63,213 bases of DNA from contig CAIYYT010000054.1 in the NCBI GenBank assembly GCA_903930455.1, positions 1 through 63,213 of the forward strand, read 5' to 3'. Source of the DNA: an uncultured bacterium. GTDB lineage: Bacteria; Zixibacteria; MSB-5A5; CAIYYT01. Below the pieces are notes generated by a model, which did no database searches, was not told the origin of the DNA, and was given only the letters and a program-made list of their open reading frames with translations. Shown here piece after piece: positions 3,614 to 43,880 of the stretch; the first letter of the stretch is position 1; the number at the start of each line of letters is the position of its first letter. A program made the position numbers and the translations under genes.

Positions 3614-3876
3614 CGCTGCAAGCTTGGGAGATGAGTAGGTTGCCCCCCCATGGTTTGGCGTTTTGATTTCGCGTATCCCTCTGCCAGGATTTCGACGTTT
3701 TCGCTGATCTCGCTTTTCAAAGCAGAATCGTTGAAACCACGAGGATTTCGGCCTACTCGACTCATCCCCATCAGTTAACCCGACGCTTCGCTCTGGGGGC
3801 TGCCGGCTGAAATCGGTCGTGAGCATGGGGCTCTAGACCTACTACTGCGTCCCCCAAAGCGATGCCCCAAATTCGC

Positions 3877-6208: not shown

Positions 6209-6745
6209 CTACAAAGAACGGATGCGACCAAGTCGGCTCGCGAGTACTGTACGGCGACCTCTCGGATGATCGACAACGACGATCAGCGCTATTGTCAGCA
6301 GAGTCGCCAGAAGTGCAAGCATCATGTAGTTAAAAATAGGGCTGCCAGTGATTTGCTCCAGCCAGGGGAATGAACTCTCCAGACTACTGAGACTGTCCCA
6401 ACGGAGTTCAGTCAGCAGCGGGCGCCCGGGTTGTGCGACGTGGCGCCAGAGAGCGAAGATTGAAACTCCGACGATTACGCTCAGAGCAAAAGTACCACAG
6501 AGATACTTGAAGAGAATCGTCGAGACAGTCGGCTCAGGGAAATATGACAAGAGCTTTTCGGTGAAGTCGTCCGGCGCGCTCACCTCTTCAAGCGAGATTG
6601 CGCTTAGTCGGGTTTCCTCAACGAGTTCGGCGGCACAGGAAGCGCAGCAGTCTATGTGTTCCCGGATCAGATTGCTTTGGGCAGGCGTAAGTGATCCATC
6701 AAGAAATATTTTCATTCTCCAACGAACATCCCGACAAGGAATCAT
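6209..6745 (-). CDS. Anti-sigma factor (zf-HC2), membrane-anchored
   Basis: H-x3-C-x2-C motif REHIDCCASCAAEL near the N-terminus, transmembrane segments in the C-terminal half, and a 4-nt overlap with the upstream ECF sigma gene. Confidence 0.8.
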   Translation of the reverse strand: MIPCRDVRWRMKIFLDGSLTPAQSNLIREHIDCCASCAAELVEETRLSAISLEEVSAPDDFTEKLLSYFPEPTVSTILFKYLCGTFALSVIVGVSIFALWRHVAQPGRPLLTELRWDSLSSLESSFPWLEQITGSPIFNYMMLALLATLLTIALIVVVDHPRGRRTVLASRLGRIRSL

Positions 6746-8839: not shown

Positions 8840-10318
8840 ATGTCAGACGACATGCGTTGTGAATGCGGTGTTTTCGGAATCTTCGGGGCAAAGAATGCGG
8901 CACAGATGACCTACTTCGGTCTCTATGCGTTGCAGCATCGGGGGCAGGAAGGCGCGGGAATTGTCACCTTTGACGGAAAAGAGTTGCACGAAGTTCGCGG
9001 GCAGGGTGAAGTTGCAGAGGTGTTTAATCGCCAGGAACGGCTTACTGAGCTTAAAGGTGACCGGGCAATCGGCCACAATCGCTATTCAACGGCCGGATCA
9101 TCGACGCTGCGCAACGTCCAGCCACTGGTGATAACCTTCAAGGGAAAGAACCTGGCAGCGGCGCACAACGGCACTCTCACTAACGCGGAATCGCTTAAAA
9201 GACATCTGGAACAGTCGGGTTCCATCTTTCAGACAACTTCAGATACGGAAATTCCACTGCACCTGATCGCCAAGAGCAAAAAAGGAACGTTAGCGGAGAT
9301 GATCGCCGACGCGCTGAAACGGGTGCAGGGGGCCTACAGTATGCTCTTTCTGGACAAAGACACGATGGTGGCGGCGCGCGATCCGCACGGGTTTCGGCCG
9401 ATGGCTTTGGGTCGTTTGGGATCAAGCTGGGTGATTGCGTCAGAGACTTGCTCGTTTGATATCATCGGCGCCGAATATGTTCGCGATGTATTGCCGGGCG
9501 AAATCATCGAAATAACAGAAGCTGGGCTTAGATCGCTGTTCCCCTTCAGGGAGACCAAACACGCCTTCTGCATCTTTGAGTTCATTTATTTTGCACGACC
9601 GGATTCCAAGATCTTCGGTGAGAACGTCGATAAGATCAGGCGGCGTCTCGGCCGCTATCTGGCATTGCAGCATCCGGCGGAGGCGGACATTGTTATTTCT
9701 GTTCCCGATTCATCCAACACCGCAACGCTTGGCTTTTCGGAGCAGTCCAAGATACCGTTTGAGTTTGGCTTCATCCGCAACCATTATGTCGGCAGAACGT
9801 TTATCGATCCGAAGCAGGATATTCGCGATCTGGATGTGAAGGTTAAATTTAATCCGGTCAGAGGCGTGCTCAAGGGCAAGCGCGTGGTCGTCGTGGACGA
9901 TTCGATCGTGCGCGGGACGACGATGAAAAAGCTGATCCAGATGTTGCGCGATGCCGGCGCCAAAGAGATTCATTTGCGGATATCTTCCCCGCCGATCATA
10001 TCCCCCTGTTTCTACGGTATCGATATGCCTACCAAAGAGGAATTGATCGCCTCGCATATGACGGTGGAGGAGATCGGAAAGCATCTCGGCGTGGATTCGA
10101 TCGGTTACCTGTCGATTGACGCGATGCTGTCGATGCACTCGCTGCCAAAGGAAGATTTTTGTGTCGCTTGCTTCTCGGGCAAGTACCCTACCAACGTCGA
10201 GAATCGCAACGGCAAGCTGGCGCTGGAGAGTGGCGCAGAACAACGGGGGCGCACGAGTGACAAGAAGACCAGCGGCGATACCGGACAGAAAAAGCCGAAG
10301 GTCAAGGCGTCGCTGTAA
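8840..10318 (+). CDS. purF: Amidophosphoribosyltransferase
   Basis: Ntn-Cys motif CGVFGIFG after a short propeptide, PRPP loop VVVVDDSIVRGTT, Fe-S Cys ligands (CFYGID, CVACFSGKYP). The TTG at 8795 is rejected because it sits inside the putative promoter. Confidence 0.92.
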   Translation: MSDDMRCECGVFGIFGAKNAAQMTYFGLYALQHRGQEGAGIVTFDGKELHEVRGQGEVAEVFNRQERLTELKGDRAIGHNRYSTAGSSTLRNVQPLVITFKGKNLAAAHNGTLTNAESLKRHLEQSGSIFQTTSDTEIPLHLIAKSKKGTLAEMIADALKRVQGAYSMLFLDKDTMVAARDPHGFRPMALGRLGSSWVIASETCSFDIIGAEYVRDVLPGEIIEITEAGLRSLFPFRETKHAFCIFEFIYFARPDSKIFGENVDKIRRRLGRYLALQHPAEADIVISVPDSSNTATLGFSEQSKIPFEFGFIRNHYVGRTFIDPKQDIRDLDVKVKFNPVRGVLKGKRVVVVDDSIVRGTTMKKLIQMLRDAGAKEIHLRISSPPIISPCFYGIDMPTKEELIASHMTVEEIGKHLGVDSIGYLSIDAMLSMHSLPKEDFCVACFSGKYPTNVENRNGKLALESGAEQRGRTSDKKTSGDTGQKKPKVKASL

Positions 10319-41248: not shown

Positions 41249-41773
41249 ATGTTTCGATTTGGCGGCATTTTCGCTACACTATTTTTTCTAATAGGCGTAG
41301 GAATTATCGGGTGCGGCGATAGCAGCAGCGAGCCGGAAAAGATTACAAATCGGGTCTACCTGCCCGAGAAGATTCAGGCTGCCCCCGGAGAGTTCTTTAC
41401 AGTACCAGTCAACTTCGATAACGCAGTCTCTCTCTCAGCAATCAACGTGCCCTTGCTATTTCCCTCCTCTCTCCTGCGTCTCGATTCGGTCTCGTTCCAG
41501 AACAGCCGCGCAAGTCAGTTCATGTTCAAAGAAGTCTTTGCCAAAGCTGACACGATCTCGATTGGCGTTGTTGACGATTCTGCCGCAGTTGCGACCGGTC
41601 GCGGTCTGCTCGCCACGATCTACTTTATGGTTCGCCCAACTGCGCCCGACACAACCTTTCTGTTGAACACATTCGACTACCCGCTACTGCCGCTGAGTTT
41701 CTACGACCTCCAATTGAATCCGGTGACCAATGCGCCGACGTTTAAGGCGTGCCAAGTGACGATCAAGGAGTAG
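41249..41773 (+). CDS. Lipoprotein with a cohesin-like domain
   Basis: Lipobox GIIGC after a hydrophobic signal. The body (AAPGEFFTVPVNFDNAVSLSAINVPLLFPSSLLRLDSVSF...GRGLLATIYFMV) matches my recollection of the cohesin type I pattern. This needs an HMM check. Confidence 0.6.
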   Translation: MFRFGGIFATLFFLIGVGIIGCGDSSSEPEKITNRVYLPEKIQAAPGEFFTVPVNFDNAVSLSAINVPLLFPSSLLRLDSVSFQNSRASQFMFKEVFAKADTISIGVVDDSAAVATGRGLLATIYFMVRPTAPDTTFLLNTFDYPLLPLSFYDLQLNPVTNAPTFKACQVTIKE

Positions 41774-41954
41774 TTTCGAAGACTTCTTTGGGGAGTTTTG
41801 GGTTGACAGGAATGGGGAGTAGTCGCATATTGGTTATAAGCGATTATGTTTGGTGAGGGGCGGGGTTGGCAGTTGGGAGGGAAACCAGAACTCCGCATCT
41901 TATGCAGATCAGTCTAACTATTGTTAGGCGTAAGAACAACACAGGACAAACTGA

Positions 41955-42383
41955 ATGGAAATAGCGATAATACCCCGCTTCATAATCAGAAAGTTTTGTT
42001 CTGATCAAGCAAATCAAATTCATGCAAATGTTTTGCTGACTAGCATGCTTGTTATTATCGTGCTTGCGTTTTGGCACAACCATTATGTTTATTTGTCATC
42101 AATACCTCACTTCTGCGTTTTTCAAGGGATTTTGAATATCCCATGTCCAGGCTGCGGAATAACTCGAAGCATTTTTGCTATTGCTGAAGGGAACATTATT
42201 TCTGCATGGAAATCCAATCCGGCCGGCTTGTTTTTGTTTTTCTATTTTATTGCACAGATACCCTTGCGTATTATCGCTCTCACGTTCCATACTTTGCAAG
42301 GCCAAATTTCTCAGATGTCTCGACTTGGTAGCAAGATTGTAATATCTGTTTTGTTTTTGGTGTGGATAGTACGATTAACCTAA
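41955..42383 (+). CDS. DUF2752-family membrane protein
   Basis: CVFQGILNIPCPGCGITRS signature plus TM helices; AT-rich codon usage. Confidence 0.75.
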   Translation: MEIAIIPRFIIRKFCSDQANQIHANVLLTSMLVIIVLAFWHNHYVYLSSIPHFCVFQGILNIPCPGCGITRSIFAIAEGNIISAWKSNPAGLFLFFYFIAQIPLRIIALTFHTLQGQISQMSRLGSKIVISVLFLVWIVRLT

Positions 42384-42404
42384 TAACCAAAAAAAGGAGA
42401 ATGA

Positions 42405-42572
42405 CATGGCACAATTGTCTTGTCCAAAATGCAATGAGATGGCAACTCGCGGTGGTTTTATGGCTTGGCAAATCATCGTAGCTATTTGCTTTTTCCCAAT
42501 TGGGCTGCTTGCGTTATTGGCTAGCCGTAAACCAACAAAGTGTCCTAAGTGCGGACATACTTGGCAAGCATA
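42405..42572 (+). CDS. 55-aa zinc-ribbon membrane mini-protein (CxxC - TM helix - CxxC); absent from the ORF track
   Basis: AAGGAGA SD 6 nt before the ATG at 42405. MAQLSCPKCNEMATRGGFMAWQIIVAICFFPIGLLALLASRKPTKCPKCGHTWQA, with the stop at 42570-42572. Confidence 0.65.
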
Positions 42573-42594
42573 GCCTCTATTGCAAAATTCAACA

Positions 42595-42664
42595 CGTCTA
42601 ACAAGGCGCTGCACCTGACCGCTATTCCGCTGCACCATAGCGGCAGGTGAGCTTGGTCGTTATC
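42595..42664 (+). mobile_element. attC-like recombination site A
   Basis: GTCTAAC-AAGGC-GCTGCACC-[hairpin]-GGTGAGC-TTGGTC-GTTATCT. R''/L''/L'/R' boxes have canonical lengths, and L'' carries one bulged G relative to L'. Confidence 0.6.
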
Positions 42665-42734
42665 TGGAAGCAGAACCCGTAGGCGGATATATCTGGAAAC
42701 TATATATAAACAGAAGTTGGATTTTCTACCTCAT

Positions 42735-43427
42735 ATGGATATCTCATCGGAACAGGTTTACGAGGCTCTCGCCGCGAAGGGCGTCGCGAATATTCACCAC
42801 GCCAACAGCGTGATCACAGCGTGCCAGTTCCTCCGGACGGGTTCACTCATGTCCCGGGGAACGGTCGATCGGAATGGATTGTTTCAGACAAAGCAGGCGT
42901 CGGACGACATCGACAAGAAGTATGGAATCTGGTTTGATGTATTCGCGGACTCCGTCGATATCCATGATCGCGCCAAGTGGGCAAACAAATATGGACCTGT
43001 GACCTTTGTCCTCGACATCAAGCTAATCGAGGAGGCTTCTACCGGGAGAGTCTGGGTTACGAAGTTAAACCCGACCAAGTGGGAAGGAAAATCACGGGAA
43101 GAGTGCTGGTTTTCTTCGGCCGAGGACTTGAAAGCGTACTTCGTAAAGGGCTGCTTCGATCAGATGATTGTTTTTCGTCACTGCGGTGGGATACTCCCGT
43201 TCAAGGACTACCTCAAGGAAATAATCCTTGACAATCCGAAAATAAAAACCGAGGAAGATGAAGTGGACTATTACAGCATGGCTTTCGGCGCCCTTCGCCT
43301 CTCGATGACTGAGGGCAGGATAGACGTCCCATTACACAAGAGGGTTTGTCCGCCGGAATGTAGTTGTGTTGCAGATTACCAAGGTGACAGAGTTCGCACG
43401 AGAGAAATGTATTTGCCGAAAATTTGA
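42735..43427 (+). CDS. Hypothetical protein (orphan, cassette-borne)
   Basis: 230-aa ORF from the ATG at 42735 (MDISSEQVYEAL...). No family recognised. Bracketed by the two attC-like sites. Confidence 0.7.
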   Translation: MDISSEQVYEALAAKGVANIHHANSVITACQFLRTGSLMSRGTVDRNGLFQTKQASDDIDKKYGIWFDVFADSVDIHDRAKWANKYGPVTFVLDIKLIEEASTGRVWVTKLNPTKWEGKSREECWFSSAEDLKAYFVKGCFDQMIVFRHCGGILPFKDYLKEIILDNPKIKTEEDEVDYYSMAFGALRLSMTEGRIDVPLHKRVCPPECSCVADYQGDRVRTREMYLPKI

Positions 43428-43493
43428 CACTGTACTCCAGCGGACCGTCGAAAAGCTGCGCTTATCGCTGTCCGCTGAGCTTCGTCGTTACCC
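43422..43493 (+). mobile_element. attC-like recombination site B (degenerate R'')
   Basis: ATTTGAC-ACTGT-ACTCCAGC-[GGAC..GTCC hairpin]-GCTGAGC-TTCGTC-GTTACCC. The right half is 16/20 identical to site A. R'' overlaps the ORF's stop codon. Confidence 0.45.
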
Positions 43494-43695
43494 CCTTGCC
43501 TCCTTCTTGCCCTAATTCCCCACAAGAGACTTGTGCAGACATTCCCTCCCCAAACCGGCAGGCGGCCGACCTATCTCATTTGCACCTCCCCTTCGATGCC
43601 GAAGTTAACGATGATGACCGAATCCGCGCCTGTCATTGCGCATCCCCCTTGCCATCCATTTCGAATTTGTGTAACTTCCCCACGCTTCACCAATT

Positions 43696-43781
43696 GCCGG
43701 AGTGGCGAAATTGGTAGACGCAAGGGACTTAAAATCCCTCGCTCAGTAATGGGCATACCGGTTCGATTCCGGTCTCCGGCA
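43696..43781 (+). tRNA. tRNA-Leu (anticodon UAA), type II with a long variable arm
   Basis: Acceptor stem GCCGGAG/CTCCGGC, anticodon stem AGGGA/TCCCT with loop CTTAAAA, T-arm ACCGG-TTCGATT-CCGGT, 86 nt. Confidence 0.9.
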
Positions 43782-43841
43782 TTTTCTTCTCCAACCATCC
43801 ACCTGAAAATCCGCCCACACAACTTGTCCAGCTAACCGACC

Positions 43842-43880
43842 AAAAGAAAAGCCGGCGGCATTGCTGCCACCGGCTTTTTG
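43842..43880. terminator. Bidirectional rho-independent terminator (tRNA-Leu / HYR gene)
   Basis: AGCCGGCGGCA-ttgc-TGCCACCGGCT stem (1 mismatch), flanked by an A-run on the left and a T-run on the right. Confidence 0.65.

Follow-up and report, generated by a model that had tools for sequence, protein, structure and literature searches.

A probable integrase-less integron remnant, with two gene cassettes and part of attI, beside tRNA-Leu in a Zixibacteria chromosome

Layout of the locus

The DNA analyzed here, referred to as the window, is a 63,213-nt stretch from an uncultured bacterium of the candidate phylum Zixibacteria (contig CAIYYT010000054.1 of assembly GCA_903930455.1). Seated between a conserved cohesin-like gene and a tRNA-Leu gene of this chromosome are two gene cassettes, each closed by an attC recombination site. 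Together with about 50 nt that are read as the 3' end of an integron attI site, they make up positions 41880-43493, which very probably represent an integrase-less integron remnant with genuine attC sites at the end of both cassettes. On the plus strand, the order is attI core, cassette 1 (closed by site A), cassette 2 (closed by site B) and tRNA-Leu. An element of this composition is an attC-site cluster that lacks an integron integrase (CALIN), a kind that is already known and not a new type. Its parts, followed by the promoter-like site and the two flanking genes, are listed below.

41880-41929, plus strand: attI core remnant, with the crossover between G41923 and T41924
41924-42659, plus strand: gene cassette 1 (736 bp), with a DUF2752 open reading frame (ORF), a zinc-ribbon ORF and site A at its end
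42596-42665, plus strand: attC site A (25.4 bits with covariance model R1, described below)
42660-43487, plus strand: gene cassette 2 (828 bp), with one 230-aa ORF and site B at its end
43422-43493, plus strand: attC site B (27.1 bits with model R1)
41803-41831, plus strand: promoter-like site TTGACA-17-CATATT (consensus scan, 10/12 positions)
41249-41773, plus strand: left flank, cohesin-domain lipoprotein gene (Pfam Cohesin), a conserved core gene outside the element
43695-43782, plus strand: right flank, tRNA-Leu(UAA) (ARAGORN; Rfam tRNA, 60.2 bits)

Cassette 1 contains two ORFs with Pfam assignments, a DUF2752 ORF (41955-42383) and one for a 55-aa BRI3-like zinc-ribbon membrane protein (42406-42573). 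The G+C fraction of this cassette (0.38-0.41, compared to 0.50-0.56 in the flanks) marks its composition as foreign. Since the cassette begins with TTAGGC, its circular form would have an R' box of GTTAGGC, complementary at 6/7 positions to its own R'' box, GTCTAAC. The promoter-like site is found about 50 nt upstream of the attI core and is partly conserved in one of the comparison loci, which are labeled with L-numbers (L018, described below). Judging from its sequence, this site could be a candidate driver of the cassettes. A preliminary description of this DNA had two attC sites bracket exactly one ORF. There is one ORF between sites A and B, but site A closes a two-ORF cassette of its own, which starts at an attI remnant that had gone unnoticed.

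The same description called the ORF of cassette 2 (42735-43427, 230 aa) an orphan. It instead belongs to a widespread and highly conserved family, with more than 375 homologues of about 60% identity in Myxococcota, Acidobacteriota, Pseudomonas, Lysobacter, Idiomarina and others. Searches with the 230-aa protein returned no match in Pfam (DUF4433 included, E up to 0.1), NCBIfam, PADLOC or the PDB sequences, and one homologue is named DUF4433 in one database source. The AlphaFold2 model of the protein, calculated with 32 homologues, is confident, with a predicted local distance difference test (pLDDT) score of 87.6. In a Foldseek search with this model, the three best PDB matches are DarT1/DarT (E 1.6e-4 to 5.6e-4, probability 1.00, template modeling (TM) score 0.46-0.54, root-mean-square deviation 5.7-7.1). 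The protein is predicted to have a DarT-like ADP-ribosyltransferase fold, a distant resemblance at the level of the fold only. DarT, the DNA ADP-ribosyltransferase toxin in the DarTG system (PDB 8baq, 7omy), is the best match to this predicted fold, whereas the TM score of about 0.5, the identity of 11-13%, the lack of a sequence-profile match and the lack of a DarG-like partner gene in the cassette set the two apart. Homologues of the 230-aa gene adjoin NACHT, PtuA-like ATPase and restriction-modification genes. In L027 (8134-10690), an attC site (9937-9984, 30.6 bits) separates a PtuA-like (Septu) ATPase gene from a 230-aa gene homologue located after it. Thus, in this Idiomarina genome, the DarT-like gene comes directly after another defense-type cassette.

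Sites A and B are attC sites

When single-stranded, the bottom strand of an attC site folds into a hairpin in which the paired R and L boxes bind the integron integrase. Bulged bases mark the strand that recombines, exchange takes place within the GTT triplet (G/TT), and cassettes are inserted at attI or excised as circles. In site A, the R'' box GTCTAAC is followed by the spacer AAGGC, the L'' box GCTGCACC, an inner stem (TGACCGC...GCGGCA), the L' box GGTGAGC, the spacer TTGGTC and the R' box GTTATCT. The corresponding elements of site B are ATTTGAC, ACTGT, ACTCCAGC, GGAC...GTCC, GCTGAGC, TTCGTC and GTTACCC. The L boxes of site A (GCT(G)CACC with GGTGAGC) are paired at 7/7 positions with one bulged G, and the inner stem has one bulged A; those of site B (ACT(C)CAGC with GCTGAGC) are paired at 6/7 positions. 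In the inverse core of site A, GTCTAAC is the full R'' consensus and GTTATCT consists of GTT plus 2/4 of the consensus positions that follow. The R'' box of site B, ATTTGAC, is degenerate (GAC), so this feature is present in part, and it overlaps the TGA stop codon of the ORF at 43425-43427. As in attC sites, the unpaired spacers of both A and B are unequal (5 and 6 nt), and both sites are positioned directly 3' of plus-strand ORFs in the R''-to-R' orientation. Overall, site A and the attI core look intact, and the R'' box of site B looks damaged.

In DNA folds of the bottom strands, a bulged T and a bulged C are found in site A and a bulged G is found in site B. All of these bases are on the 3' arm, the one that carries the extrahelical bases in attC sites. 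The usual extrahelical pair in attC is G and T; site A has a C in place of the G bulge, and site B lacks the T bulge. The preliminary description had suggested folding of both strands as a check, and with DNA parameters the hairpins beat shuffled sequences on both strands (z -2.3 to -3.1). Its other structural proposals also agree with the sequence: the attC box layout in both sites, the 7-bp L''/L' pairing with one bulged G and the inner-stem bulged A of site A, the position of site B with the TGA stop in its R'' box, and the identity of the two right halves at 16/20 positions. Two values needed correction. Site A, whose layout is as described, was placed at 42595-42664 and is in fact one base to the right, and the distance between the two G/TT points is 828 bp instead of 829 bp.

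Relative to class 1 integron attC sites (aadA type, blaIMP-1 and dfrA14), sites A and B share the box order, the 5-nt and 6-nt spacers and one L'' bulge at position 4. The second bulged A of site A, three bases past L'', resembles that of the aadA type, and the sequence GCTGAAC TTAGC GTTAGGC of blaIMP-1/dfrA14 resembles the right half of site B (GCTGAGC TTCGTC GTTA). In contrast, the bottom-strand L'' bulge of site A is a C and not a G, site B has no second bulge and carries GAC in R'', and both sites have low sequence identity to the clinical sites.

A covariance model, R1, was prepared from seven attC sites of clinical class 1 integrons, with the R, L and first inner-stem pairs annotated. 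The integrons were drawn from plasmids via an attI1 probe, and the attC sites were read out from them. For attC sites outside this training set, R1 gave 37.9 bits (aadA5), 25 bits (arr-3), 20.9 bits (dfrA14), 18.5 bits (dfrA27) and 15.1 bits (IMP-1). When R1 was run on both strands of the whole window with filters off, site B ranked first (27.1 bits, E 3e-5) and site A ranked second (25.4 bits, E 1e-4), each with a plus-strand match over the full length of the model. These scores are on par with or above those of the held-out arr-3, dfrA14, dfrA27 and IMP-1 sites. The attC identity first proposed for A and B, to be checked with a covariance model, is thereby upheld, with R1 in place of the IntegronFinder model. 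The next matches are to a mini-palindrome at 41912-41929 (16.4 and 14.7 bits), and beyond A, B and this palindrome nothing in the window falls below E = 1. A loose rule-based scan (R''/R' triplets, variable spacers, L pairing with one bulge and five inner pairs) was non-discriminating, as a score of 14 was given to A, B and about 40 other places in the window, compared to 25 in random sequence. Box spacing alone is therefore weak evidence, and the covariance model was used instead. Rfam is without an attC family; it gave no match at the sites or at the attI element and found the tRNA alone.

Both sites have homologues among the attC sites of integron arrays elsewhere. In L004, an 81%-identical gene is followed by ATCTAAC ATCGC GTTCCAGC TGACCGTCGAAAAACCGCGC...GCTGAAC TTAACA TTTAGGC, a clear homologue of site B to which R1 assigns 36.1 bits. 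In L003, a 77%-identical gene is the first cassette, adjoining the N-terminal remnant of an integron integrase (MKPAAPPVLRAKRLLDQVRERIRYKHYSLRT...). Ahead of this gene is GTTAGAT, which complements the gene's own R'' box ATCTAAC exactly, and after the gene come an attC site (27.5 bits) and more cassettes. Because the homologous cassettes in L003 and L004 carry ATCTAAC, site B is a slightly decayed copy (ATCTAAC to ATTTGAC) of an attC site that travels with the 230-aa gene. The L''/L' differences among the copies of site B are compensatory, and in an alignment of 29 attC sites that includes site B, the L-box helix is 97% paired and both-sided changes are seen in 6/9 pairs. Site A is 88% identical over 64 nt to an attC site of L086, found at the end of a two-gene cassette within an integron array. 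The inner stems of these two sites (TGACCGC/GCGGCA versus GGACGGC/GCCGCC) differ in a compensatory manner, and attC sites of the same type as site A are also found in L070, L074 and L127.

Ordinary intrinsic terminators, or chance imperfect palindromes that resemble attC, could also be G+C-rich hairpins located 3' of ORFs, as A and B are, and about 40 other places in the window equal both sites in the loose structural scan. However, no T-run follows either hairpin, both are absent from the listing of a terminator scan, R1 separates them cleanly from the rest of the window, and both have homologues that are attC sites in integron arrays. This explanation is largely refuted and retains a very low probability. 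A role as genome-wide repeats unrelated to integrons, of the repetitive extragenic palindromic (REP) or miniature inverted-repeat transposable element (MITE) kind, would fit the 16/20 identity of the right halves and is given practically no credence. The right-half motif that the preliminary description singled out is present in the window just at sites A and B (3 or fewer mismatches allowed; 0.46 matches expected), which amounts to two copies only in 63 kb. In addition, across about 140 kb from related Zixibacteria and neighboring loci, R1 finds no site except within this interval, and the related copies elsewhere are in cassette arrays downstream of attI.

The attI core and the missing integrase

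The short palindrome at 41912-41929, GTCTAAC TATT GTTAGGC, was the lead to the surrounding attI sequence, which in the window reads GGAAACCAG AACTCCGCATCTTATGCAGATCA GTCTAAC TATT G/TTAGGC. A 23-mer from this core, AACTCCGCATCTTATGCNGATCA, has at least 120 exact matches in Joint Genome Institute (JGI) metagenome contigs. The metagenome copies end in ...GGACAGGAAACCAG AACTCCGCATCTTATGCGGATCA GTCTAAT TATT G/TTAGGC (also given as ...GGCGTGTTATACGGACAGGAAACCAG AACTCCGCATCTTATGCGGATCA GTCTAAT TATT GTTAGGC). Past GTTAGGC, the copies diverge wholly, with a column conservation of <50%, and different ORFs start. From GGAAACCAG to GTTAGGC, the window core has 2 substitutions relative to the family consensus, and about 165 nt of the full region upstream of this segment are absent.

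An ORF or fragment similar to IntI1 is found just upstream of the core in 19/80 family loci, on the same strand in 17 of them, and all of the R1 attC matches in these loci (35/35) are downstream of the core on the same strand. The best example is L071, whose integrase (IntI) shares 49% identity with IntI1, includes the extra domain specific to IntI and ends about 215 nt before G/TT. Integrases about 80% identical to that of L071 are on record in the thousands as 'integron integrase', from metagenome-assembled genomes (MAGs) of Planctomycetota, Sedimentisphaerales and Deltaproteobacteria. Because of the placement between the integrase gene (intI) and the first cassette in the 19 loci, and because of the sharp boundary of conservation, the conserved region is read as the attI site of an environmental integron family of very high abundance, with intI transcribed toward the cassettes. 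The left junction of the window element matches this conserved integron region and is likewise read as attI. In many metagenome copies, nothing more than the core or a short stretch from the 3' end of intI is left; truncated platforms are therefore common in this family. In Treponema-type atypical integrons, intI is also transcribed toward attI and the cassettes (PMC3607928), and in the metagenome relatives studied here intI, the attI element and the cassettes are similarly co-oriented. These relatives differ from the Treponema type in that their integrases form a separate, abundant environmental group (49% identity to IntI1, about 80% among themselves), and the window is without intI.

Additional observations concern the attI family itself. 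In L073 (minus strand; 1709-1731, 2673-2695 and 3763-3785), three tandem units, each composed of an attI region and one ORF, are spaced about 1 kb apart. Two of the three keep a decayed intI 3' end, and R1 detects no attC site between the units, an arrangement suggestive of attI platforms that were repeatedly duplicated or recombined with one another. The three copies raised the idea that the attI element is a long attC site. This idea was rejected, as the order of the GTT-like and AAC-like ends is reversed on both strands, the 5' half of the first hairpin varies without compensation, and the element always precedes arrays of normal attC sites. The region of about 215 nt from the intI stop to G/TT is highly conserved across L071, L089, L098 and L057, where it contains an inverted repeat of 16 nt (GATCCGCATAAGATGC ... 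GCATCTTATGCGGATC) with some 130 nt between its arms, and it has no Rfam match. Sites of the attI type are described as far less conserved than this region. Based on the high conservation, the inverted repeat and the lack of an Rfam match, the region may have a regulatory or structural role beyond attI. L105 and L112 have a perfect TTGACG-17-TATAAT promoter just upstream of the core. The intI ORFs of L071, L089 and L098 contain short in-frame G+C-rich insertions, such as ACLPRCEPSRRRQ and PACRLSACIAQAGARGAGR, and in most other family loci only the last 40-90 codons of intI are left. Many platforms of this family seem to be decaying.

In the window, 106 nt separate the end of the cohesin-like gene from the attI core, and the intI gene that would adjoin attI in a complete integron is absent. 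A phmmer search (--max) of the 63 kb translated in six frames, for which IntI1 plus four further tyrosine recombinases were the queries, gave no match better than E = 0.03. Pfam searches with 10 large ORFs located up to about 10 kb away to the left or right identified housekeeping genes only and no recombinase. These results are in agreement with the preliminary description, in which the window was without a tyrosine recombinase, the locus was labeled CALIN-like and tRNA-Leu was placed about 200 bp away; by ARAGORN, this gene starts 201 nt past site B. A CALIN is defined as two attC sites <4 kb apart on one strand without intI (Cury et al. 2016, PMC4889954). Consistent with this class, the two plus-strand attC sites have 828 bp between their crossover points, no intI is found within 4 kb or 10 kb, and neither cassette is related to the resistance cassettes of clinical integrons. 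The loss of intI is frequent (PMC2426708), and 95% of CALINs have no recognizable intI pseudogene nearby (PMC4889954). In addition to these CALIN features, this locus retains a recognizable attI core at its left end, and its origin from an integron platform is therefore traceable.

Variation among relatives and possible cassette exchange

The flanks of the window share about 88% nucleotide identity with other Zixibacteria MAGs, and a flavodiiron gene adjoins the cohesin gene in every relative fetched. The interval from the flavodiiron and cohesin genes to tRNA-Leu, which the preliminary description suspected to be polymorphic, does differ in content in each lineage compared.

L010: 490 nt between the cohesin gene and tRNA-Leu, no attC
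L008: an unrelated ORF in the interval
L018: the same host-attI junction, then one Schlafen/AlbA_2 + restriction-endonuclease-like ORF, and a decayed terminal site
L161: the junction is shared, the core has diverged, and a 188-aa ORF follows
L157: core absent; a DUF6602 ORF together with a weak attC resembling site B
P0250 contig: four other ORFs in the interval

Between the window and L018, homology ends at 41926, in the GTTA of attI, and starts again at 43485, which is two bases ahead of GTT in the site B R' box. The stretch upstream of the core aligns between these two loci with a score of 82, compared to 27 +/- 4.5 for shuffled sequences. As this stretch is common to the window and L018 and is not homologous to canonical attI, the truncation is shared and is older than the difference in cassettes. 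Anti-phage defense cassettes are known from sedentary chromosomal integrons (bioRxiv 10.1101/2024.07.02.601686), and several genes of this locus look defense-like, namely the DarT-like gene of the window, the Schlafen/AlbA_2 + restriction-endonuclease-like ORF of L018 and the DUF6602 ORF of L157. The cassette proteins of the window match no PADLOC model.

Other differences are found around the tRNA gene. In L008, tRNA-Leu is split, with its 5' part beside the cohesin interval and a second partial copy about 5 kb away (6480-6587 and 1349-1394), which resembles the outcome of an element's integration into the tRNA gene; the retrieved stretch of L008 yielded no tyrosine recombinase. In L018 (4525-5500) and L161 (6380-7250), the cassette is separated from tRNA-Leu by a second cohesin-like paralogue, which is 47% identical. 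This paralogue is flanked by direct repeats (CACGAACCGGCAGGCGRCCAACCTRTCGAGG), and the window has a single copy of the repeat region (~43545-43575). Just downstream of tRNA-Leu in the window, a strong intrinsic terminator (14-bp stem and T-run; 43847-43878, minus strand) is located 3' of the gene for a 1389-aa HYR/type IX secretion-tail protein. In L157 (6854-7972), an ATP-grasp gene occupies the gap from tRNA-Leu to the HYR gene, in which the window has the terminator only. Both sides of the tRNA gene are therefore variable.

Because the window, L018 and L161 share the junction of host sequence and attI core but hold different cassettes, cassettes may have been exchanged after intI was lost. 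It is tentatively proposed that the truncated, integrase-less platform is still in use, with the attI core of about 50 nt being a sufficient target and the integrase coming from elsewhere in the genome or from a visiting element. In such a scheme, and by the established integron mechanism, an integron integrase supplied in trans would bind the R and L boxes in the folded bottom strands of both sites, A and B, and strand exchange would take place at G/TT against attI or another attC site. As there is no integrase in the window, the array could be changed only if one were supplied from elsewhere in the cell; the recombination activity of the array is inferred.

Several points weigh against the reading of this locus as an integron remnant with exchangeable cassettes. 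The R'' box of site B has GAC instead of the near-invariant AAC, and R'' and R' are paired at only 3-4 of 7 positions in both sites. Site A is missed under the default filters of Infernal and was recovered only with the filters off, and R1 is a small, home-made model with rough E-values that differs from the model of IntegronFinder. R1 also fails on the terminal sites of L018 and L161, and the terminal site of L157 scores just 13.1 bits. With these terminal sites unrecognized, part of the case for cassette exchange rests on the positions of the junctions and not on intact attC sites. All contigs with an identical 230-aa protein (18/18) share one context, so there is no sign of current turnover. 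Finally, the sequence just upstream of the window core has no detectable homology to the canonical attI region.

This last point bears on the main rival explanation for the origin of the locus, in which the cassettes are real but were never part of a resident integron. Here, an integrase encoded elsewhere would have inserted them at a secondary site (attG-type), and the match to attI would be inserted or coincidental. Such insertion is documented (bioRxiv 10.1101/2022.09.11.507474; PMC4889954), the sequence upstream of the core is host-like, no intI remnant is found beside it, and L157 has a cassette-like insert without a core. However, the left boundary of the window element is a nearly base-for-base attI core of about 50 nt that ends at G/TT, which a random site would not have, and the frequent copies with only a core or a short piece of intI indicate that truncated platforms are common in this attI family. 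Secondary-site insertion is accordingly regarded as unlikely. Because the region upstream of the core has neither homology to canonical attI nor an intI remnant, we infer, and do not read directly, that intI was once present at this integron remnant and then lost rather than never having been there.

The element itself is ordinary, as CALINs and cassette arrays are common and well described. Its presence places integron cassettes in Zixibacteria, a little-studied candidate phylum for which a literature search found no paper describing integrons, and it provides a CALIN with a readable origin, since a piece of attI is still attached. The attI core also lends itself to use as an exact-match probe for this environmental integron family of very high abundance. 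The related genomes, with one truncated junction and different cassettes, offer a natural test of in-trans exchange in integrase-less arrays, a question that was left open by the IntegronFinder paper. If such exchange has taken place, this locus would be a natural example of a CALIN that serves as a live cassette store for trans-acting integrases.

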